This document shows positions 5,526 to 58,295 of a stretch of DNA of 64,000 nt, piece by piece; within the stretch, counting starts at the first letter, position 1; every line of letters starts with the position of its first letter. The position numbers and the translations under genes were made by a program. The stretch lies in contig CAMBPQ010000004.1 in assembly GCA_945869735.1 (NCBI GenBank), forward strand, positions 5,219 to 69,218, written 5' to 3'. The notes beneath the pieces were generated by a model. That model was not told the DNA's origin, ran no database searches, and was given only the letters and a program-made list of their open reading frames with translations. Source of the stretch: Planctomicrobium piriforme (GTDB taxonomy: Bacteria > Planctomycetota > Planctomycetia > Pirellulales > UBA1268).

Positions 5526-5620
5526 CTTCACGCCCGCCGGGCCCTCGTGGCCCCGGCGGGCTGGACCTGATGGGCTCGCCATCTAGGCGAGCGATCATGC
5601 GTTCTGCCGAGACGCCGTCT

Positions 5621-5845
5621 CCCGTCAGGAAGCCCCAATCGCGAGCGCGGGGAATGCGGGTGAACTGAAGACTGCGACGCATTGGTTCGCCGGCGGTGAC
5701 ATGCTCGCCGCCGGGGGATTTTGCTACGGGATGCCCGCGTGGCCGACCGAGCATTGCTCGTGAGTCGCAAAGATTCCCCGGCGTCTGCGCGTGCCTCCGA
5801 CCGACTCCTCACGATCGGGAGCGTGCGCCTCCCGTCAGGAAGCGC
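5621..5845 (+). repeat. R3 repeat, copy 1 (bounded by R2-type half modules)
   Basis: Aligns by eye over ~225 bp with 37632-37860. The 45-nt core ATTGGTTCGCCGGCGGTGACATGCTCGCCGCCGGGGGATTTTGCT is identical in both. Starts with CCCGTCAGGAAGCCCCAATCGCGAGCGCGGGGAATGC and ends with a degenerate second copy, CCCGTCAGGAAGCGCAATGCC. Confidence 0.8.
5689..5724 (+). terminator. terminator-like hairpin inside R3 copy 1
   Basis: GCCGGCGG-tgacatgctcg-CCGCCGG followed by GGGATTTTGC, ~165 nt downstream of the tmRNA 3' end on the same strand. Confidence 0.3.
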
Positions 5846-8211: not shown

Positions 8212-8296
8212 CTCCCGCCAGGAAGCCCCAAGCGCGAGCGCGGGGAATACGCCCACCACCCCAATCACGCCCCGGGCTCGCGGATGCCCCTGAGAA
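8212..8296 (+). repeat. R2 hairpin element, degenerate copy
   Basis: CCCGCCAGGAAGCCCCAAGCGCGAGCGCGGGGAATACGCCCACCACCCCAATCACGCC.. matches the R2 copies at 41457-41538 and 37843-37962. The right arm is eroded. Confidence 0.6.
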
Positions 8297-13974: not shown

Positions 13975-13999
13975 GTACGGCACCTTCGGCTCCGGACTC

Positions 14000-14174
14000 G
14001 AGCGCATTCGACTTACGCGTGTCGCCAGCTCGGGGGCGGCAAAAGTCTCGTCGCCGGGGCGAGGATACGCCCAAGGCTCCTCGAGCGTTCGCCGACCCCC
14101 CTCGCCTACCTCCTCCAAGGTGCCATCTCGACGCTGCACCAAAGGAAGATGCGTTCGAAAGCGAGAGCGTTCTA
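14000..14174 (+). repeat. R1 MITE-like element, copy B
   Basis: GAGCGCATTCGACTTACGCGTGTCGCCAGCTCGGGGGCGGCAAAAGTCTCGTCGCCGGGGCGAGGATACGCCCAAGGCTCCTCGAGCGTTCGCCGACCCC...GAGAGCGTTCTA. The final CTA (14172-14174) is the stop codon of the upstream minus-strand gene. Confidence 0.85.
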
Positions 14175-21104: not shown

Positions 21105-21159
21105 CCCTTCATCCTACCCACCGCGCGGCGATGTCGTGCGCTCTCCGGAAAGCCCCCAG

Positions 21160-21280
21160 CGGTAACAGAGGAGGCAAGGGGGTCGGCGAACGCTCGAGAA
21201 GCCTCGGGCGTATCCTCCCCCCCGCGACGAGACTTTTGCCGCCCCCGAGCCGGCGAACCACCAGAGTCGAATCCGCTTTA
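21160..21280 (-). repeat. R1 MITE-like element, copy C (truncated at one end)
   Basis: GAGGAGGCAAGGGGGTCGGCGAACGCTCGAGAAGCCTCGGGCGTATCCTC..GACGAGACTTTTGCCGCCCCCGAGCCGGCGAACCACCAGAGTCGAATCCGCTTTA. The terminal TTA (21278-21280) is the TAA stop of the adjacent minus-strand gene. Confidence 0.8.
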
Positions 21281-22252
21281 GGATATTTGGCGAAGCGCGC
21301 CCACGAGATATCCGGCCCAGTCCCACGGCAGGTGGTCGACGCCCGCGGCCAGTCCCCAGGCGGCAAGGTCGCCCTGCAAGACATCGCATGCCGAGCGTCC
21401 TGTTGCCGGATCGCAGCCATCATGCCGCCATGCGACGAGCGGCACGGCACAAGCCGACCGCCAGGCTTCGTGAGGCACGCAGCCCGCGGCGAGCGTAACG
21501 GCGATGAAGTCGAGTGGCGTCTTCACCATGGGAGGCGGCTGGCTGCCGTCGACTGCCTGGCCGATCAGCATGGTTCCCTTTGTGCGCCGCAGTGTGGCAA
21601 GCCGCCCAGCGATGACCTCCGACGGAACGTCCGCGGCGACCAGCGCGAGCATCGCGGCGGGATGGCGGGCAAGCGCAGCGACCTTGGCGGTCATCAGGTC
21701 GGCGGCTCCGAGCAGTGGTATGAGGGCCACGCCCATCTCGTCGGCGCTCGCGAGGTCTTCTTCCAAGACGTTCACGAGCACAGCCCCAAGCGACGCGGCT
21801 TTGACCGCAGGGAGGTCGGGGCGACCGGCAGCGACCACGGCCCGCGGCGCCCACCGCCGCCCGTCGAGCCACAACGACCGACCGCGGACACCGAGACGCC
21901 GCAAGCCAATGAGGGTGTCGGTACGGCCCGCCGCCGAATCGCTCGGACCGGTGCTCGGACTGTCGACAGTGGCCTCGAGACGGTAGAGATTCGGCAGTTC
22001 GGGCGTCCAATACGCCGGTTCGGTGAGGATCGCCCGCGAGACCGGACCGACATCGGCACCGCCCGGCAGCGGCACGAGCCGGGACGTCGTGGGGAGCGTC
22101 GTGTCGCGTCCGCGCCGGGGACCGATGATCGTGCCGGTGATGCGAGCCGCCGACGTTCCCGATCCCACGAGCCGCACGAAGGCCTCGGCCCGCATGTCGT
22201 CACAGGGACCGAGTAAGACGCTGATCTCCGGAAAGATGGCCGTGGCGGTCAC
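21278..22252 (-). CDS. hypothetical protein with glycoside-hydrolase-family-2-like remnant
   Basis: 324 aa, GTG start. ..EPAYWTPELPNLYRLEATV..IGLRRLGVRGRSLWLDGRRW.. resembles the GH2 sugar-binding/Ig-to-barrel junction, but the remainder is too short for a full catalytic barrel. Its start overlaps the upstream stop (GTGA, 22249-22252). Confidence 0.65.
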   Translation of the reverse strand: MTATAIFPEISVLLGPCDDMRAEAFVRLVGSGTSAARITGTIIGPRRGRDTTLPTTSRLVPLPGGADVGPVSRAILTEPAYWTPELPNLYRLEATVDSPSTGPSDSAAGRTDTLIGLRRLGVRGRSLWLDGRRWAPRAVVAAGRPDLPAVKAASLGAVLVNVLEEDLASADEMGVALIPLLGAADLMTAKVAALARHPAAMLALVAADVPSEVIAGRLATLRRTKGTMLIGQAVDGSQPPPMVKTPLDFIAVTLAAGCVPHEAWRSACAVPLVAWRHDGCDPATGRSACDVLQGDLAAWGLAAGVDHLPWDWAGYLVGALRQIS

Positions 22253-26942: not shown

Positions 26943-28259
26943 ATGCCCGTGCAGCGTGTTCTCGCCCTGGTGCTCGGCGGTGGCCGCGGCACAAGGCTTT
27001 ATCCGCTCACCCGCGATCGCTCGAAGCCGGCGGTGCCGCTGGCTGGAAAATACCGCATCATCGACGTGCCGCTGTCGAACTGCATCAACAGCGGTGTGCA
27101 ACGGATCTACGTGCTCACGCAGTTCAACTCCGTGAGCCTCCACCGCCACATCCGTCGCACCTATACGTTCGACCCGTTCAGTGGCGGCTTCGTCGAGATC
27201 CTCGCAGCCCAGCAGACGCTCGATAACTCGGGTTGGTACCAGGGCACCGCCGACGCCGTGCGGCAGAACATTCGGTATCTCCAGCAGCCGGACATCAAAC
27301 ATGTGCTCATTCTCTCGGGCGACCAGCTCTACCGGATGAATTACGCCGACATGCTGGCGACTCACGTCGCTCACAACGCTGACGTCACGATCGCCGGCAT
27401 CCCTGTGCTGGACGAGGCCGCCTCGGGGCTCGGCCTGATGCGACTCAACAGCGTCGGCCGCGTGGAAGGTTTTCTTGAAAAGCCGCAAACGGCTGCCGAA
27501 CTCGACATGATGCGCACCGACCCGGCATGGATCGACAACCAGGGAATCCCCGCGAAGGGGCGGTCGCTCATGGCAAGCATGGGCATCTATCTCTTCAACC
27601 GCGACTGCCTGATCGACCTGCTGACCAAGACCGACTATCAGGACTTCGGCCGCGAGGTATTTCCCACCGCCATCCGGGCGAAGCATGTGCAACTCCATCC
27701 GTTCGACGGTTACTGGGAGGACATTGGTACGATCCGGTCCTACTTCCAGTGCAACCTCGATCTGGCTGGGATTGCACCCCCCTTCGACCTGGTGAACGCC
27801 GAGGCGCCGATCTATTCCCGGGGCCGGTTTCTGCCGCCGACCAGGATCGCCGGCGCGAGTATCCGCAACAGCCTCGTATCCGATGGGTGCGTTGTCGAAT
27901 CGGGGACCGTGATCGAGAACAGCGTGATCGGCCTGCGGTGCCGGATCGGCAGAAACGTCATCATCCGTGACTCCGTGATCCTTGGAAACGACTTCTACGA
28001 GACCGATGGCGTCCTCGCCGACGCGGCCGTCCGGGGCCTGCCACCACTCGGCATCGGTGACGATACGATCATCGCCGGTGCGATCATCGACAAGAACGTC
28101 CGCATCGGCAAGCGGGTGAGGATCGCCAACGAACACGGCTGGCAGAACACGGCCGACAGCGACCAATTCATGATCCGCGATGGCGTGGCCGTGGTTCCGA
28201 AGGACGGGCTTGTCCCGGACGGCTGGATTCCCGAGCCCGGCTCCGTGAAGCCCGGTTAG
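26943..28259 (+). CDS. glgC: glucose-1-phosphate adenylyltransferase (paralog 1)
   Basis: LVLGGGRGTRLYPLTRDRSKPAVPLAGKYRIIDVPLSNCINSG. AAGGAG Shine-Dalgarno sequence 7 nt upstream. The TAG stop (28257-28259) is the first 3 nt of R1 copy D. Confidence 0.95.
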   Translation: MPVQRVLALVLGGGRGTRLYPLTRDRSKPAVPLAGKYRIIDVPLSNCINSGVQRIYVLTQFNSVSLHRHIRRTYTFDPFSGGFVEILAAQQTLDNSGWYQGTADAVRQNIRYLQQPDIKHVLILSGDQLYRMNYADMLATHVAHNADVTIAGIPVLDEAASGLGLMRLNSVGRVEGFLEKPQTAAELDMMRTDPAWIDNQGIPAKGRSLMASMGIYLFNRDCLIDLLTKTDYQDFGREVFPTAIRAKHVQLHPFDGYWEDIGTIRSYFQCNLDLAGIAPPFDLVNAEAPIYSRGRFLPPTRIAGASIRNSLVSDGCVVESGTVIENSVIGLRCRIGRNVIIRDSVILGNDFYETDGVLADAAVRGLPPLGIGDDTIIAGAIIDKNVRIGKRVRIANEHGWQNTADSDQFMIRDGVAVVPKDGLVPDGWIPEPGSVKPG

Positions 28260-28416
28260 AGGGCATCCGACTTACGTGGATCGACGACTCGGGGTCGGCA
28301 AAAGTCCCGTCGCCGGGGCGAGGATACGCCCAAGGCTCCTCGAGCGTTCGCCGACCCCCTCGCCGACCCCTTCCAGAGTGCCCTCTCGGCGCTCCACCAA
28401 CGGCAGAGCCGCGCTA
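28257..28416 (+). repeat. R1 MITE-like element, copy D (fills the convergent intergenic gap stop-to-stop)
   Basis: TAGAGGGCATCCGACTTACGTGGATCGACGACTCGGGGTCGGCAAAAGTCCCGTCGCCGGGGCGAGGATACGCCCAAGGCTCCTCGAGCGTTCGCCGACCCC..GCGCTCCACCAACGGCAGAGCCGCGCTA. The first TAG is the glgC stop. The last CTA is the stop of minus-strand gene 28414-29055. Confidence 0.9.
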
Positions 28417-29055
28417 GCGAAGTTGGCGGGTCCGCCAGCCGGGCGTTTCCGCCAGCGAGGGGATTGCAGCCGGCTGCTGCGGATTGGCCTCAAGGGGCGC
28501 TTCCTCAACCTGGTCGGTAGGCGCGGCCGAGGCGGCGACCTCCTCCTCGACGTCGAGCGAGACGTCGTCAACTTCTGTGAGAACGATGCTCGACCCGTTA
28601 GCCGCCAGCGGGGCGGTAGCGACATCGTCGTCGTTTGTCTCCTCGCCGCGAACCATCAGGATGCTGACCGGTTCCCCCGCTCCGACGGCCTGATCGACGG
28701 CCTCATCGGCGGGCAGTGGATCGGCGAGCGTCGGCTCTCCGGTGCGGCGGGAAACCCGCTTCGCGACGGGCCCCAAATCACTCTTGGTGGTAGCCCGCTC
28801 GACGAGCGGTGGCCACGGGCACGGCACCGCATTCAGCGGCAGGATTCCGCCGCTTCGCGCACGAAACTCGTTTTGCGGCGCCGAACCGTTCGGCACTGCC
28901 CCGGAGTAGTCGTACGGATCGGGGCACATCGTGCATCCCGACAGCACCGCGACCACCGCCACGGCGGCGACGCGACCACTCACCGTCCCGGCGAAGCGGC
29001 CCAAGCGGTCCATACGATTCCGACGTCCTTCCCCGGAACGGGCCGGCCGGGTCAC
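28414..29055 (-). CDS. hypothetical lipoprotein with acidic C-terminal half
   Basis: Lipobox ..AAVAVVAVLSGC|TMC. ATG 29013 (MDRLGRFAG..) is an alternative start. No recognisable domain. Confidence 0.6.
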   Translation of the reverse strand: MTRPARSGEGRRNRMDRLGRFAGTVSGRVAAVAVVAVLSGCTMCPDPYDYSGAVPNGSAPQNEFRARSGGILPLNAVPCPWPPLVERATTKSDLGPVAKRVSRRTGEPTLADPLPADEAVDQAVGAGEPVSILMVRGEETNDDDVATAPLAANGSSIVLTEVDDVSLDVEEEVAASAAPTDQVEEAPLEANPQQPAAIPSLAETPGWRTRQLR

Positions 29056-29182: not shown

Positions 29183-29364
29183 TGAGAGCGCATCTGCCTT
29201 TGGTGGAGCGGCGAGATGGCACCTTGGAGGAGGGAGGCAAGGCGGTCGGCGAACGCTCGAGGAGCCATGGGCGGATCCTCGCCCCGGCGACAATCCGCAG
29301 GACCGCGCAGCGGCGACTTTTGCCGCCCCCGAACCGGCGATCCACAGAAGTCGAATGCACTCTA
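29183..29364 (-). repeat. R1 MITE-like element, copy E (with ~20-nt internal insertion)
   Basis: TGAGAGCGCATCTGCCTTTGGTGGAGCGGCGAGATGGCACCTTGGAGGAGGGAGGCAAGGCGGTCGGCGAACGCTCGAGGAGCC...GACTTTTGCCGCCCCCGAACCGGCGATCCACAGAAGTCGAATGCACTCTA. Confidence 0.85.
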
Positions 29365-30194: not shown

Positions 30195-31601
30195 TCATAA
30201 CGCCCGGCGATGCCGCTTCGGCCCACGGCCCTTGCCAAGGGACGAGGGCGGTCGCTTGGGCTGCTCCGCCGCGGGGGGCTCCTCGGTCGGGCTCGCCGCC
30301 GCCGCCGCCGCCGCCCGCTGGAAACCGCCTGTGGGCACGTGCTCTACCGGTGCTGGCTTCGGCCGGCGGTCAAAGGCCTCGAAGCCCTCGATCTCGTCAC
30401 GCTTGAGGAGCCGCTCGATCCGGATTTCGATCCGCGTGAGTTGCGGCCCCTCCTCGGGGCTTACGAACGTGAAGGCGATGCCCTCGCGGCCCATGCGGCC
30501 GGTGCGGCCAACGCGATGGACGTAGTCGTCACAGAACTCGGGGATGTCGTAGTTGACGATGTGCGAAACGCTCGACACGTCAATGCCCCGTCCAACCACG
30601 TCGGTGGCGACGAGGACCTTCACCGACCCCTCGCGAAACTGCTTCATCACGCGGTCACGGATGCTCTGGGAGAGGTCTCCGTGAATGCACGCCACGTCCT
30701 CGGCGTCGGAGCGAGTCTGCCGCGACCGCCTCCGCTGGAGTTTCTCGAAGATCTTGTCGGTACCGCGCTTCGTACGGCAGAAGACGATCACCTGCCGGGG
30801 CTGCTCACGGTCGAGTAACCGCTCCAGAAGGTCGAATTTTCGAGTCGGATCGACCGTAAAATATCGCTGCTCAATCGTCTCGACGGCAAGTTCGTTCACC
30901 GAGAAATCCATGATCTCGGGATCCCGCATGTACCGCGTGGCGAGCTTCTGCACCGGCGGCGGCACGGTGGCCGAGAGGAGGAGAGTCTGCCGACTCTCGG
31001 GGCAGCGGCGGAGGATCTTCTCGATGTCAGGGCGGAATCCGATGTCGAGCATCCGATCGGCCTCGTCGAGCGTGACGATCTCGATTGCTGAGAAGTTCAG
31101 CGTGCCCCGACTCATGTGGTCGAGCACGCGGCCCGGCGTGCCGACGATGACCGCCGGATTCTTGGCCAACTTGTCGATTTGCCCCTTGATAGGCTTGCCG
31201 CCGTAGACGGCGACGCAGTGGATCTTTGACCCGAACGCGAGCTTCTCAAACTCATCCTTCACCTGCACCGCAAGTTCGCGGGTGGGCACGAGCACGAGCG
31301 CCCGCGGTCCGCCGCCACGGCCGGGCTGGTGCATCCGTTCGAGAATCGGGAGCACAAACGACGCTGTTTTGCCTGTACCCGTGCGGGCCTGGCCAAGCAC
31401 GTCGATGCCCTTGATAGCCCGAGGGATCAGCCCCGCCTGCACGGGCGTGGGCGTGGTGTAGCCCGCCCGATCGACGGCAGCCAGCGTCTCCGCAGAGAGC
31501 CCCATCGTCCGAAAATCACCCGCCACCGGCGGAGCAGCGTCTCCGCCCATCGCTTCGGCCGGAACACCCGATTCCGCCGGGTGTCCTGCCCTGTTGTCCA
31601 T
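30195..31601 (-). CDS. DEAD-box ATP-dependent RNA helicase
   Basis: ORF 30195-31889 trimmed to ATG 31601 (MDNRAGHP..); ATG 31649 is possible. Q motif/[35 protein letters not shown], and a basic C-terminal tail. The discarded N-terminus is a translation of R1 copy F. Confidence 0.9.
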
Positions 31602-31850
31602 AAACACTCGTTGCCTCGTTGCTTCCTCGAAAACGTCGTCCGCATGCATCCGCAGGGCAGCGTTGCCCCGGTGCAGAAGCCCGCCGCAGACACGGCTGCA
31701 GGGCGGGAAAGCGGCTGGCGGCGTTTGAGAAAGCCGCCCCTTCAATGCCTGAAAAGTACCACGCGCAGGCAAACTCGGCAAACATGACGATCTCAGGCGG
31801 CGTGTTTGACCGACTTTTCCCGCGACTGGCCGCACGGGTTGCAGGGAGCC

Positions 31851-32010
31851 TAGAGCGCGTCCGCCTTTGGTGGAGCGGCGAGATGGCACATGGGAGAAGG
31901 GAGGCGAGGGGGTCGGCGAACGCTCGAGGAGCCTTGGGCGTATCCTCGCCCCGGTGACGAGACTTTTGCCGCCCCCGAAGCCGGCGATCCACGCACGTCG
32001 AATGCGCTCT
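31851..32010 (-). repeat. R1 MITE-like element, copy F
   Basis: TAGAGCGCGTCCGCCTTTGGTGGAGCGGCGAGATGGCACATGGGAGAAGGGAGGCGAGGGGGTCGGCGAACGCTCGAGGAGCCTTGGGCGTATCCTCGCCCCGGTGACGAGACTTTTGCCGCCCCCGAAGCCGGCGATCCACGCACGTCGAATGCGCTCT. Confidence 0.9.
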
Positions 32011-32047
32011 CACCGCGTCGGCGGGAGGGCCGACCTGCGACGCGGCA

Positions 32048-37579: not shown

Positions 37580-37631
37580 TACGGCCCCACGTGACTGACG
37601 CCGCTGTGCTTCTTGGGGCCACACCCCCGCC

Positions 37632-37860
37632 AGGCAGCCCCAAGCGCGAGCGCGGGGAATGCAGGTCGTATCGAGACGGTGCCGGATTGGTTCGCCGGCG
37701 GTGACATGCTCGCCGCCGGGGGATTTTGCTCCAGGATGCTCGCTTGGCCGACTGGGCATCGCTCGTGAGTCGCAAACATTCCCCGACGTCTGCGCGTGCC
37801 TCCGACCGGCTCCTCACGATCAGAAGCCGGTGCCTCTCGCCAGGCAAACCCAATCGCATT
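37632..37860 (+). repeat. R3 repeat, copy 2
   Basis: Aligns with 5621-5845. Same orientation and same position relative to an upstream plus-strand gene end. Confidence 0.8.
37702..37737 (+). terminator. terminator-like hairpin inside R3 copy 2
   Basis: GCCGGCGG-tgacatgctcg-CCGCCGG then GGGATTTTGC, ~120 nt downstream of the response-regulator stop. Confidence 0.3.
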
Positions 37861-38027
37861 CGCGGGGAATGCGCGTGCCATCCCAATCCGCTCCCCGCCA
37901 GCATCACGGTCGTCACCCGCCTTCCCATCGCTTGCGCTCCGGGCTTCTTGAGGGCACGCTCATGCCGTGGAGCGACGTGACTTTTGCCGCCCTCGAGCCG
38001 GCGATCCACCAAAGCAGTACGCGCTCC
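37843..38027. repeat. R2 element (with insertion) fused to a deletion derivative of R1
   Basis: TCGCCAGGCAAACCCAATCGCATTCGCGGGGAATGC...CCCATCGCTTGCGCTCCGGGCTTCTTGAGGGC (R2), then ..GACTTTTGCCGCCCTCGAGCCGGCGATCCACCAAAGCAGTACGCGCTC. In the latter, the R1 left-TIR and right-TIR sequences are joined directly. Confidence 0.7.
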
Positions 38028-41012: not shown

Positions 41013-41426
41013 ATGATGCGATTCAGCATGATCGCCGGAGCCGTGCTGGGAGCCGTGTCCGTGGCCGGAGGCGCCTTCGGGGCCCACGGGCTGAAGGACA
41101 CGCTCGATGCGACCGGCCAGGCTGCCAACTGGGAAACGGCCGCTCGCTACTGCATGTATCACGCGCTGGCCCTCCTCGCACTCGGCCAGCTCGCCGGTCG
41201 GCGACCAGTGGCCTCGTGGCCGTTCACGGCAGCTGCATGGTGTTTCCTGGGGGGCACGCTGATCTTCAGCGGCTGCCTGGCGGCCCTCGCACTCTCCGGC
41301 GTGAAAATCCTGGGCGCTATCGTGCCGATCGGCGGCGTGCTCTTGATCGCCGGCTGGCTGCTCATGGCCCTCGCGGCGGCGGCCGAACGCGAGAGTCCGC
41401 CGCACCCACGAAGCGAGCGGCTTTAG
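41013..41426 (+). CDS. DUF423 (YgdD/TMEM256-family) small membrane protein
   Basis: ..AGAVLGAVSVAGGAFGAHGLK....A.RYCMYHALALLALG.. is typical of DUF423. Starts 4 nt after the secretin stop. Its TAG stop is the first 3 nt of repeat copy G. Confidence 0.85.
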   Translation: MMRFSMIAGAVLGAVSVAGGAFGAHGLKDTLDATGQAANWETAARYCMYHALALLALGQLAGRRPVASWPFTAAAWCFLGGTLIFSGCLAALALSGVKILGAIVPIGGVLLIAGWLLMALAAAAERESPPHPRSERL

Positions 41427-41676
41427 AGCCCATTCGAGCTACGTGGATCGCCGGCTCCCGTCAGGAAGCCCCAAGCACGAGCGCGGGGAATACGGCCCGC
41501 CACCCCATCCCATCGCTTGCGTCCGGGCTTCCTGAGGGCCGCGGCGAGATGGCTCCTTGGAGGAGGGAGGCAAGGGGGTCGGCGAACGCTCGAGGAGCCT
41601 GGGGCGTATTCTCGCCCCGGCGACGAGACTTTTTCCGCCCCCGAGCCGGCGATCCACGTAAGCCGAGTGCGATCTA
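41424..41676. repeat. Composite element G: R1 left terminus + nested R2 + inverted R1 body, stop-to-stop between convergent genes
   Basis: 41424-41456 is TAGAGCCCATTCGAGCTACGTGGATCGCCGGCT. 41457-41538 is R2 (CCCGTCAGGAAGCCC...GGGCTTCCTGAGGG). 41539-41676 is the R1 body in reverse orientation, ending GCCGGCGATCCACGTAAGCCGAGTGCGATCTA. The outer 16 nt TACGTGGATCGCCGGC are a perfect inverted repeat. Confidence 0.85.
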
Positions 41677-45941: not shown

Positions 45942-46329
45942 AAACCTCGAGAAACACCTGGAACTCTCGCCGGCAAGAGGGTACCACGCCGCGCCGGAGA
46001 GGGTGAACGCCGCGTTCGGGCCACGGCCGGGGCCATTTTTGGCCGGTTTTGCAGAGCGGGCGGCATCCGTCCGGGCCGTCGGCCCGCCGGTGTCGACCCA
46101 CCCGACCCGTGGAGCCTGGCGGACGTCTGGTTCAAAAACAGCTCGCCAGACCCGAGGCTCGATGATGAACAGACGGTGAGCGCGCTTGTGCTGCCTATGA
46201 CCTCGATCCCATTGAAAGCGGAGGTGAGGGGCTGCCCATGCCCCAGGAGCCGGGCTCGGCGGCCAGCGCAGGATAGGATGGCGAAGCGCAGCCGGCGTGC
46301 AGAGAGCGGAGGGCACGATGCCCGGAGCG

Positions 46330-46452
46330 AACGTCCGGCGATGGGGCATGGGCAGCCCCTCACCGGCACCAACGTCCGGCGATGGGGCATGGGCAGCCCC
46401 TCGCCGGCACCAACGTCCGGCGACGGGGCATGGGCAGCCCCTCACCGGCGCG
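46330..46452. repeat. 3 x 41-bp tandem hairpin repeat downstream of phoU
   Basis: The unit AACGTCCGGCGATGGGGCATGGGCAGCCCCTCACCGGCACC occurs at 46330, 46371 and 46412. Each unit folds as CCGGCGATGGGGC-loop-GCCCCTCACCGG. An inverted partial copy, GGTGAGGGGCTGCCCATGCCCCA, lies at 46223-46245. Confidence 0.85.
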
Positions 46453-49815: not shown

Positions 49816-52504
49816 AAGCCCTCTTGCGAAACCGCTGCCGCACGAGTTCGGCTACCGTGTTGACAACGAACGTGATCGCGAACAGCGTCAGCGCTGCGAG
49901 AAACAGCACCCGATAATGGGCCGACCCACGGGCCGCCTCGGGAAGCTCCGTGGCGATCGCTGCCGAGAGCGTCTGAAAGCCGTTAAACAGGTTCCAGCTG
50001 ACCAGCGGCGTGTTGCCGGCCGCCATCAGCACGATCATCGTTTCGCCCACCGCGCGGCCGAGGCCGATCATCACGGCGGAGAACAGGCCGCTGGCCGCCG
50101 CCGGCACGATCACGCGAACCGCCGTCTGCCAGGGCGTTGCTCCGGCACCGAGCGACGCACTGCGGAGGTGTTCGGGGACGCTCGACAGTGCGTCGTCGGC
50201 GATCGTGAAGATCAGCGGGATGATCGCGAAACTCATGCCGATGGCGACGATCAGCGCGTTGCGTTGCACGTATGTCCCGAAGATGCCGCCACGGGTGTCG
50301 AGTCGCAGCGAGTCGAACAACACCGCGACCGCGACCGCGAACGCCACGGTCGCGACCACGCCACAGAGAAACACGAGGAGCGAGGCGGCGGCCGCTCGCC
50401 TGTGCGTCCAGCTGCCGCTGACCCGCCGGAGCCAGGGATTCACGAAGCGACCGACGAGCGCCGTGGCAGCGATCGCGGCCAGCGGCAGGCTGGCGAACAC
50501 CCAGCCCCCAAAGCCGCTGCCACCACGGCCATCGAGCCAACTGGTGACATTGCCGCCAAACAGGAATCGCTCGGCCGCCGGAGCCAACGTGCGCGACAGT
50601 GCGATCCCGACCGGCAGGGCCCCAAAGGCGACGACCGCGAGCCGCCAACCGGCATACCGGGTCCGCCACCCGGACGGCAGCAGCTGCCAGAGGTGGGCCG
50701 AGAGGAGGATCACGACGGGGACCAGAAAACAACCGGCCAGGAGCGGCATCAGCGACCGCTCGATCACAGGGGCGAACACCAGCCCGGCCATGAACCCGAG
50801 CACCACACTCGGCAGGCTCGCCATCATCTCGATCGTCGGCTTGATGCGGGCCTTCCACCGGGCGTGCATGAACTGACTGGCGTAGATCGCCGCGAGCAGG
50901 GCGATCGGCGTGGCAAACAGCATTGAGTAGAGCGTGGCCTTGAGGGTGCCGAAGATCAGGGGCACGAGACCAAACTTCGACTCAAACGCCTCGTGACCAG
51001 TCGTTTCCCACGCATGCGAGGCGCCGACGTAGTTTTCATACCAGACAGGCGCGAGCAGCGTGCGGGCTGAAATCTCGGGGTAGCCGGTGTCAATGGACCA
51101 GACGGCGAGGCTGCCGCGGCCGATGGCGAGCAGGCGGTTCTCGCGGGACGAGATGCAGAGCCGTGCGGCCAGGATCGACGGGCCCGCGTCGGCAGCCGCA
51201 CGTGCGACTGGCGGCTCGAGCACGTCTGATCCGGCGGTCGACTGCAGGAGGCGGACGCCCCGCGCGGCATCGGAAACCGCGAACAGCCGCGACCTGGGAG
51301 ACGCGGCGATGGCCGTGATGGCGACGGCCTCGTCGGCCCGCCGTGGTTCGAACGTGCGGGCAACGGCCATGCGGAGCCCGTCAGCGGCACCCTTGCCGAC
51401 GTCTGCCGCCTCGCCGCCTTCGGACACGCCGCGAGTGGCGAACATGATCCGCACCCGGCCGAGAGAATCCCCGACCGCGAGCGTCGCCCCGCCGAAGAGC
51501 CGCTCGACGACCGTCACCTCGGCGTCGCCCGGACCCGCATCGAACGACTCCATGAGCACGGGTGAGTCGATGTCGCGAATCAGATACCGGTGGGCCTCGC
51601 CACTCGTCGCGATCAGGAACAATTGGTCACCGAGCGCCGACGTGCGGATGAATCGGGCCTTGAACCCGACCGGCGGCTCGATCGACACACCCTTCGGCGT
51701 GCTCGTCATCTTTCCGGTGAGCATGTTGCGTTTCGAGGTCACGGCCTCGACACGGATGCGGCCGGTGTCGTCCACGGCGGCCACGAGCGGGCCACCGGCG
51801 AGCGACACCACGTCGATGTCGATGACGGGCCCACCGAGCGGTAGGGTAGGCGGCGGCCCAAGTTCCGTGATGAGCGACACGCGGGAAAATCGGTCGCCGG
51901 CCAACCGCACCACGAGCGAACCGTCAACCGTCACGGCCCCGCCCACCTGCTTCGGAAGTTGATCCGGTCGGAGTTCCTCGGCGGGTTGGTAGGCGGAGTC
52001 GAGGCCGATGCGGCCGGTGCGAAATGAGCCGTCTGCAAAGCCGACCGCGGCGAGCATGCCGCCGGGCGGCACGCGGACGGCCGAACTACCGGCGAGTCCG
52101 GTGTCGGATGCCGGCTTGTCGAGGAGCGTTTGGCCGTCGGCCAGCCCCACGACAGTGATGCCTCCGGCGACATCAGACTCGCCGTGCAGCAGCCAGGCCA
52201 CCGCCCCCGACTCATCGGCACCGAGGGCTGCGGTGCGACCGGAAGTCAGCGGCGAGACCAGGTCGAGCGATCCAAACGCACCCTTGAAGAGCGGGGCGGC
52301 AACGGCGATCAAAAACACGCCCACCGCGAGCACAGCTACGATGGTACCGATCCCGCCGAGCGTGATCACGGCGCGGGCGATCGAGTCGGAGGCCCTCACC
52401 CACGGATGGGTCGCGCGCCGCCGAGGCCGACCGGTAAATGTGGACTTGGCCTGCATGCGACCGAAGCGTGTGCGGTGTGCCCAACCCGGCCCGCGCTGGG
52501 CCAC
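49805..52504 (-). CDS. pstC: phosphate ABC transporter permease PstC (long form with ~500-aa N-terminal periplasmic domain)
   Basis: 899 aa. C-terminal ~330 aa form the PstC core (..DDALSSVPEHLRSASLGAGATPWQTAVRVIVPAA..). The N-terminus has one TM helix followed by a long soluble domain. ATG 52456 is an alternative start. Confidence 0.9.
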   Translation of the reverse strand: MAQRGPGWAHRTRFGRMQAKSTFTGRPRRRATHPWVRASDSIARAVITLGGIGTIVAVLAVGVFLIAVAAPLFKGAFGSLDLVSPLTSGRTAALGADESGAVAWLLHGESDVAGGITVVGLADGQTLLDKPASDTGLAGSSAVRVPPGGMLAAVGFADGSFRTGRIGLDSAYQPAEELRPDQLPKQVGGAVTVDGSLVVRLAGDRFSRVSLITELGPPPTLPLGGPVIDIDVVSLAGGPLVAAVDDTGRIRVEAVTSKRNMLTGKMTSTPKGVSIEPPVGFKARFIRTSALGDQLFLIATSGEAHRYLIRDIDSPVLMESFDAGPGDAEVTVVERLFGGATLAVGDSLGRVRIMFATRGVSEGGEAADVGKGAADGLRMAVARTFEPRRADEAVAITAIAASPRSRLFAVSDAARGVRLLQSTAGSDVLEPPVARAAADAGPSILAARLCISSRENRLLAIGRGSLAVWSIDTGYPEISARTLLAPVWYENYVGASHAWETTGHEAFESKFGLVPLIFGTLKATLYSMLFATPIALLAAIYASQFMHARWKARIKPTIEMMASLPSVVLGFMAGLVFAPVIERSLMPLLAGCFLVPVVILLSAHLWQLLPSGWRTRYAGWRLAVVAFGALPVGIALSRTLAPAAERFLFGGNVTSWLDGRGGSGFGGWVFASLPLAAIAATALVGRFVNPWLRRVSGSWTHRRAAAASLLVFLCGVVATVAFAVAVAVLFDSLRLDTRGGIFGTYVQRNALIVAIGMSFAIIPLIFTIADDALSSVPEHLRSASLGAGATPWQTAVRVIVPAAASGLFSAVMIGLGRAVGETMIVLMAAGNTPLVSWNLFNGFQTLSAAIATELPEAARGSAHYRVLFLAALTLFAITFVVNTVAELVRQRFRKRAYEL

Positions 52505-58065: not shown

Positions 58066-58225
58066 GAGAGCGCATCCGCTTTTGGTGGAGCGGCGAGATG
58101 GAACCTTGGAGGAGGGAGGCAAGGGGGTCGGCGAACGCTCGAGGAGCCTCAGGCGTATCCTCGCCCTGGCCACGAGACTTTTGCCGCCCCCGAGCCGGCG
58201 TTCCACGCAAGTTGGATGCGCTCTA
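58066..58225 (-). repeat. R1 MITE-like element, copy H (in divergent promoter region)
   Basis: GAGAGCGCATCCGCTTTTGGTGGAGCGGCGAGATGGAACCTTGGAGGAGGGAGGCAAGGGGGTCGGCGAACGCTCGAGGAGCCTCAGGCGTATCCTCGCCCTGGCCACGAGACTTTTGCCGCCCCCGAGCCGGCGTTCCACGCAAGTTGGATGCGCTCTA. Confidence 0.9.
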
Positions 58226-58295
58226 AACTCTCAGTCGCGGCGGGTTCTCGCCAGGCCCGCCCGTTCCCCCCAGACGTTCCGGCAAACGGCGCAGA

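Follow-up and report, generated by a model that had tools for sequence, protein, structure and literature searches.

A repeat element lies between glgC and a convergent lipoprotein gene and fills the gap between them exactly, from one stop codon to the other. How does such a fit arise? The element (copy D of the repeat family R1) was analysed within the window, which is the whole stretch of 64,000 nucleotides under study, within the genome to which the window belongs and in congeneric genomes. The original prediction had offered two readings: either the insertion used one of the two stop codons as its TA target and regenerated it on the other side, or the element is retained by selection as a bidirectional 3' structure. 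Copy D is very probably a non-autonomous IS630-family MITE of ~156 nt that was inserted in the TA common to both stop codons, a stop being rebuilt on each side. The stop-to-stop fit is a normal by-product of the element's insertion preference and not a purpose-built terminator.

Structure of the intergenic region

The window's own genome (Planctomycetota, Pirellulales-type) comprises 3.17 Mb in 128 contigs, with 66.7% G+C, and is 95% complete. A family profile was built from four window copies and run on this genome with nhmmer. Copy D was matched over model positions 2-163 with 166 bits, and the 160 bases 28257-28416 align end to end with the consensus TA-GAGCGCAT...ATGCGCTC-TA. Its coordinates and both stop codons were confirmed in the ORF listing and the alignment (Table 1), which bears out the stop-to-stop fit first noticed in the letters of the sequence. 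The glgC stop is the TAG at 28257-28259, formed by the flanking TA and the element's first base (G). The lipoprotein gene also stops at TAG (CTA at 28414-28416 on the plus strand), formed by the last element base and the flanking TA. The element and the two flanking TA dinucleotides are the entire glgC/lipoprotein intergenic region.

The left terminal repeat of copy D occupies approximately 28259-28290 (GAGGGCATCCGACTTACGTGGATCG...), and the right terminal repeat approximately 28383-28414 (...CCACCAACGGCAGAGCCGCGC). The right repeat is degenerate, with a 3' end of GGCAGAGCCGCGCTA against GGCAGATGCGCTCTA in the consensus. The long ORFs that span copy D are spurious, being frames within a G+C-rich repeat. 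The lipoprotein gene product matched no Pfam family and the element matched no Rfam family.

Table 1. Coordinates of the genes, repeat copies and element ends in the window.
Feature	Position	Strand	Basis or remark
glgC, glucose-1-phosphate adenylyltransferase, 438 aa	26943..28259	+	ORF listing
Left copy of duplicated target TA	28257..28258		One TA only where other copies have a precise empty site; TA..TA around autonomous relatives
MITE copy D proper, 156 nt, IS630-type, consensus orientation	28259..28414	+	Repeat alignment
Right copy of duplicated target TA	28415..28416		Single TA at precise empty sites of other copies
Lipoprotein gene, 213 aa, lipobox LSGC (VLSGC)	28414..29055	-	ORF listing
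Second stop-to-stop case, composite of R1 element and R2-type repeat	41424..41676		Between 137-aa gene (TAG 41424-41426) and convergent 347-aa gene (CTA 41674-41676)
R1 copy	21145..21282	-	5' end gives TAA stop (21278-21280) of minus-strand gene 21278-22252
R1 copy, full length	13998..14158	+	Ends (CTC.. / ..GAA) do not coincide with a stop codon
R1 copy, full length, 21-nt internal insertion	29184..29364	-	Between start region of lipoprotein gene and next gene
R1 copy, full length	31850..32012	-	
R1 copy, full length	58066..58226	-	Best match to family model
R2 sites	5619-5673, 8212-8266, 37624-37888, 41455-41538		
Element ends of GA/TC type	14000; 29186 and 32009		CTC-GAGCGC; TGA-GAGCGC

Family assignment

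The profile gave 246 nhmmer matches genome-wide, 119 of them full length, and the window holds eight further copies or fragments besides copy D. The family consensus is TA-GAGCGCATTCGACTTnCGTGGATCGCCGGCTCGGGGGCGGCAAAAGTC...CGCTCCACCAAAGGCAGATGCGCTC-TA, typically with 156 nt between the flanking dinucleotides. Conservation ends three bases outside GAGCGC, with C (70%) or T at position -3, T (62%) or G at -2, and A (70%) or C at -1. R2 (core CTCCCGYCAGGAAGCCCCAAGCGCGAGCGCGGGGAATAC), a second repeat family, frequently lies within or beside an R1 element; conversely, one R1 copy (C38:1724-1879) sits within an R2.

The R1 repeat has the defining features of an IS630-derived MITE. The family is small and non-coding, with many dispersed copies. 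IS630 targets CTAG and duplicates TA. Four congeneric genomes contain IS630-like elements of ~1.0 kb with the structure TA-GAGCGCGTCTGACATAGG...GCGCTC-TA, and the ends of the MITE (GAGCGCAT(T/C).. / ..GGCAGATGCGCTC) match the ends of these elements (GAGCGCGTCTGAC.. / ..GGGATGCGCTC). The sole full-length reading frame among them (G007, locus L206) encodes a 324-aa protein with matches to PF13358 (DDE_3, 108 bits) and PF01710 (HTH_Tnp_IS630, 24.9 bits, cut-off 21.3). The search of the window's own genome yielded IS630-type fragments only and no intact transposase. In a degenerate IS630-like element of this genome (C26:1008-1825) two fragments of the DDE_3 domain survive. The element starts on the left with GAGCGCGTTTGAG and terminates on the right exactly as the MITE does at its 3' end (CTCCACCAAAGGCAGATGCGGTC-TA). 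It appears to be a fossil remnant of the autonomous parent. Taken over a slightly longer interval (G000:C26:871-1825), the element has a DDE_3 domain with an internal deletion and frameshifts, contains an R2 insertion and directly adjoins an R1 copy.

The target duplication is a fixed TA only. Copy D has TA at both ends, as do the autonomous elements of the four congeners. For two copies with TA at both ends (chunks 12 and 24), the orthologous site in congener G023 was precisely empty and held a single TA. With TA left at only ~41% of all element ends, the duplication is directly visible for a minority of copies. Presence and absence of copies differ between congeners, an indirect sign that the family may be mobilised in trans. 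Two other kinds of duplication were tried and rejected. A variable duplication was sought in flanks of 2-8 nt at several offsets in 101 copies and gave no signal above shuffled pairs. Against a four-base CTAG duplication (IS5-like), the inner G/C is conserved at ~90% and the outer C/G at only ~70%; left and right outer bases also differ inside single copies (e.g. GTAG against CTAG).

A different origin was weighed at this point. GTAG-tagged REP elements, reportedly described by Di Nocera et al. in 2013, are said to be abundant G+C-rich hairpin repeats often found just after stop codons; they are reportedly 20-40-nt palindromes, linked to RAYT and without target duplication. R1 is likewise abundant, intergenic, G+C-rich and hairpin-forming, it often lies beside TAG, and an intact TA duplication is absent at most of its ends, all of which would suit a REP/BIME-like palindrome spread by a RAYT (Y1) transposase and not by a TA-duplicating transposon. 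However, with 156 nt and imperfect terminal inverted repeats of ~30 nt, R1 is far above REP size. Its ends, (TA)GAGCGC, agree with the termini of IS630-family elements in the genus that encode DDE_3 transposases, TA duplication is evident at the precise empty sites, and no match to PF01797 (Y1, RAYT) was found in the 95%-complete genome. An origin from a RAYT system is scarcely credible.

Association with stop codons

Genes were counted with a heuristic ORF and codon-bias caller trained on long ORFs of this genome. At 147 of 323 anchored element ends an inward-reading gene ends nearby. The stop codon starts exactly at the flanking TA at 62 of the 323, and only four genes read into the element. 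In a three-frame control that is independent of gene selection, the long, codon-biased open frame abutting the element was the TAG frame in 74 of 79 cases, the remaining two frames accounting for 4 and 1. Applied to 61 ends from other Planctomycetia/Pirellulales genomes, this control gave 15 cases in the TAG frame and 0 and 2 in the others (15/17). Fourteen flush genes have an element-free ortholog in G023, and in 12 of these the ortholog's stop (TAG, TAA or TGA) begins at the identical base. These stops are therefore native and were not made by truncation. Four copies run from stop to stop, namely copy D, the composite in the window (Table 1), C3:45074-45258 and C82:502-661.

Target supply explains much of this association. 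TA is the rarest dinucleotide in the genome (1.08%), CTAG has an observed/expected ratio of 0.32, and stop codons account for ~1/4 of those CTAG sites that lie outside coding regions. The scarcity of TA, and of CTAG in particular, in a genome of 67% G+C is the reason why stop codons are hit often. A copy is present at 38 of 118 C-TAG stops (~32%) against 8 of 236 G-TAG stops, and ~12% of all TAG stops have been rebuilt by this one MITE family. Elements occupy 16.3% of convergent, 5.0% of tandem and 3.6% of divergent gaps. This ratio of 16 : 5 : 3.6 is approximately that expected from stop-codon targeting alone, since such gaps contain two, one and no stops, respectively.

The likely course of events at copy D can be set out from these data. 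An IS630-type DDE transposase would move the element in trans, inserting it at TA with a preference here for CTAG or YTAG and duplicating the TA. Since the first base of the element is G and its last is C, TA plus the terminal base reads TAG inward on either strand. Intragenic insertions would be purged by selection, and an insertion in the TA of a TAA or TAG stop would leave the protein unchanged. Before the insertion both genes most likely ended on one TA (GGT-TA-GCG), glgC with TAG and the lipoprotein gene with TAA, overlapping in TTAG. Insertion into this common TA would let each gene retain its stop at the original position and would make the element the whole intergenic region. Selection would now hold the two flanking TAs.

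The locus in related genomes

The convergent glgC/lipoprotein pair is conserved through the genus. Across all 20 congeneric loci the position of the glgC stop shifts by no more than two codons, with an element or without one, and most glgC homologues among the matches listed have 437-439 aa. Lipoprotein C-termini read ...PGWRxRR or similar and vary by 0-2 residues among the closer congeners. These positions bear on the possibility that the stops at the element ends are non-native, i.e. that insertions inside or beyond coding regions truncated or extended the proteins and the fit is an artefact of the terminal TAG. Such a TAG ends every frame running into the element in the matching register, and the lipoprotein of this genome (…GWRTRQLR) extends two residues beyond the C-terminal end seen in several congeners (…GWRSRR). 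The C-terminus of an element-free congener, however, is equally long (…GWRPRQDR). Random intragenic insertion would give a ratio of ~2:1 in favour of read-ins, against the 4-5 read-ins and 62-74 stops at the first base that were counted. Together with the constant glgC end and the 12 of 14 element-free orthologs described above, this makes non-native stops very unlikely, and the C-terminal truncation that the original prediction had considered was not seen at this locus.

The orthologous loci, which the original prediction had proposed to compare, point to insertion in a shared TA. Overlapping stops, in the form CTAG, occur in three congeners (L015, L017, L018), and in three others (L007, L014, L010) the stops are 2-6 nt apart. 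This genome itself has three unoccupied pairs of overlapping convergent stops, twice as CTAG and once as TTAG. When the element and one TA were removed from the locus, the sequence CCCGGT-TA-GCGAAG was obtained, in which the plus strand gives GGT TAG and the minus strand CGC TAA, both proteins being unchanged. The model predicts a probable pre-insertion sequence of ...CCCGGTTAGCGAAG... with overlapping stops; among close relatives no clean empty site was found at this locus. The claim that the TA of a stop codon served as target and was regenerated on the opposite side is thereby supported, and it can be sharpened: one TA most likely belonged to both stops.

The closest relative, G022 (~95% nucleotide identity), has the same insertion, with the rare GAGGGC start and flush with both stops. 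The insertion is therefore older than the split of the two genomes. The G022 copy (L002) is 333 nt long, with ~170 extra bases of an R2-type repeat inside and a different inner segment, which indicates that the interior of the element is not tightly constrained. Two further congeners, G009 (L006) and G003 (L008), have copies of opposite orientation at the glgC/lipoprotein junction, flush with a stop; that in G009 is a 75-nt, nearly palindromic short form. The opposite orientation suggests repeated independent insertion at one target. The nearest element-free congeners, G014 and G015, have spacers of 27 and 59 nt, and their stops do not overlap, which speaks against a shared TA. The G015 spacer (L005), measured from the glgC TAG to the lipoprotein CTA, begins with TAGcattcatgccggcgag and ends with gcggatgcactgctgttcCTA, and both resemble eroded element ends. 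The two spacers may be relics of an older copy, that of G015 a deletion relic.

Folding, orientation and the case for a 3' structure

The minus-strand RNA of copy D is predicted to form a single extended hairpin (-98.1 kcal/mol, z -4.2). In a set of 60 copies, each strand is on average a little more stable than shuffled sequences (mean z -1.8 and -2.6), and elements are threefold commoner in convergent than in tandem gaps. Each of these is what would be seen if copy D had been co-opted and were kept by selection as a bidirectional 3' structure, be it a terminator, a roadblock or an mRNA-stabilising hairpin. The plus-strand RNA of copy D, however, is not above shuffles (-73.8 kcal/mol, z -1.2). 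The earlier claim that the inverted ends can pair in transcripts from either strand is thus clearly borne out for the minus strand only. No terminator-like site was found within 28257-28416 on either strand, and there is no T run.

Orientation also speaks against such a role. In tandem gaps 16 copies have the same orientation as the genes and 20 the opposite, yet folding favours one strand in 57 of 60 copies. Both types of element end supply stops equally. At the locus itself the G022 copy carries its R2-type repeat and altered inner segment, and other congeners have no element or only short remnants. The distribution over convergent, tandem and divergent gaps is already roughly predicted by stop-codon targeting alone. 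The second reading of the original prediction, maintenance of copy D by selection as a bidirectional 3' structure, is therefore improbable given the missing T-tract, the unbiased orientation and the R2 repeat within the G022 copy. A structural side effect on transcript 3' ends would be possible; nothing indicates selection for such an effect.

Loss of the flanking TA

Approximately 41% of element ends still carry TA, and nearly all others carry GA or TC. The change from TA to GA or TC corresponds to T-to-G or A-to-C transversions; of the ends that do not serve as stop codons, most show it (137 transversions against 25 transitions). Three examples in the window are given in Table 1. TA at both ends is rarer than expected (8 copies observed, 16 expected), and in copies with one odd end the odd dinucleotide lies exactly at the place of the second TA (chunks 26 and 30). 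Among copies without TA at either end, the junctions in relatives were too diverged for the target to be read, with the exception of a copy inside an R2 repeat, for which the relative has CA.

Two simple causes were rejected. Decay with copy age would leave a correlation with similarity to the family model, and none was found (Spearman 0.06). A general mutation bias would apply to the whole genome, in which substitutions against the nearest relative are mostly transitions. The change is thus specific to the junction, because the genome's substitution spectrum is transition-rich. One idea is survivorship, in which copies with intact TAs are excised and lost and a mutated flank immobilises a copy. 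Another idea is avoidance of CTAG. Neither accounts for the base preference. A further reading is takeover of the family by the host, beyond tolerance at stop codons: copies in convergent gaps (16% of such gaps) would serve as bidirectional insulators or as hairpins that stabilise RNA, and the missing TA at one end of most copies would record selection that fixes useful copies by preventing their excision. We give this only a small chance.

Comparison with known systems

Copy D resembles IS630 (Shigella sonnei), ISY100 and the IS630/Tc1/mariner group in insertion at TA with duplication, in a CTAG-like preference and in repeats that start right after the TA. Unlike IS630 elements it has no transposase, is 156 nt long and has an inner sequence unrelated to a transposase gene. 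The ~120 full copies in a 3.2-Mb genome are far above the number usual for autonomous IS630 elements.

R1 works like RUP (repeat unit of pneumococcus) and other IS630-type MITEs. RUP is thought to be mobilised by IS630-Spn1; it is non-coding, inserts at TA, has ~100 mostly intergenic copies, and its ends resemble those of an IS630-family element of the host (Delihas, 2008; PMC2229807). Both are non-coding elements of roughly 100-160 nt with IS630-like ends and a TA target. They differ in that the RUP host is low in G+C and TA is common there, and RUP and R1 have no sequence similarity. Nearly half of the TA-bearing ends of R1 are stop codons of genes, and RUP is not so described in PMC2229807. 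The Correia elements (CREE/NEMIS) of Neisseria are TA-flanked MITEs of ~100-155 nt whose transcript ends pair and which adjoin genes (PMC2229807). Host, sequence and presumed transposase differ from those of R1. Correia elements also contain IHF sites and promoter elements and serve as targets of RNase III, features not seen in R1.

Text searches of the literature returned no description of the R1 family or of stop-codon targeting by MITEs, and a term search of a 2024 MITE review and a 2024 survey found no mention of it. The stop-codon habit of MITEs looks general, and under-described rather than new in kind. R1 provides a clean, quantified example of how target preference of a transposon and base composition together create apparent design. 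In a G+C-rich genome an element that seeks CTAG or TA lands on stop codons, rebuilds them and can replace a whole intergenic region while the proteins stay unchanged. Element ends should not be taken for terminators unless transcript data show them to be such. In practice, gene callers can extend ORFs into R1 repeats, and the repeats break assemblies.

Further observations on repeats

The DEAD-box helicase gene at 30195-31889 (minus strand) overlaps the R1 copy at 31850-32012, since its longest ORF runs 5' into this copy (MPSRRSTKGGRALG...). The added N-terminal stretch is probably spurious, produced by ORF calling across the G+C-rich repeat. An exact 21-nt core of the repeat is present in several records labelled Candidatus Kuenenia and in one labelled Chitinophagaceae (loci L104, L125, L131, L136 and others). 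These records point either to mislabelled or contaminated bins or to a wider spread of the family. At 46322-46449 the window has three 41-nt units in tandem (CCGG..AACGTCCGGCGATGGGGCATGGGCAGCCCCTCRCCGGC), with a diverged fourth unit at 51343; they are unrelated to R1.
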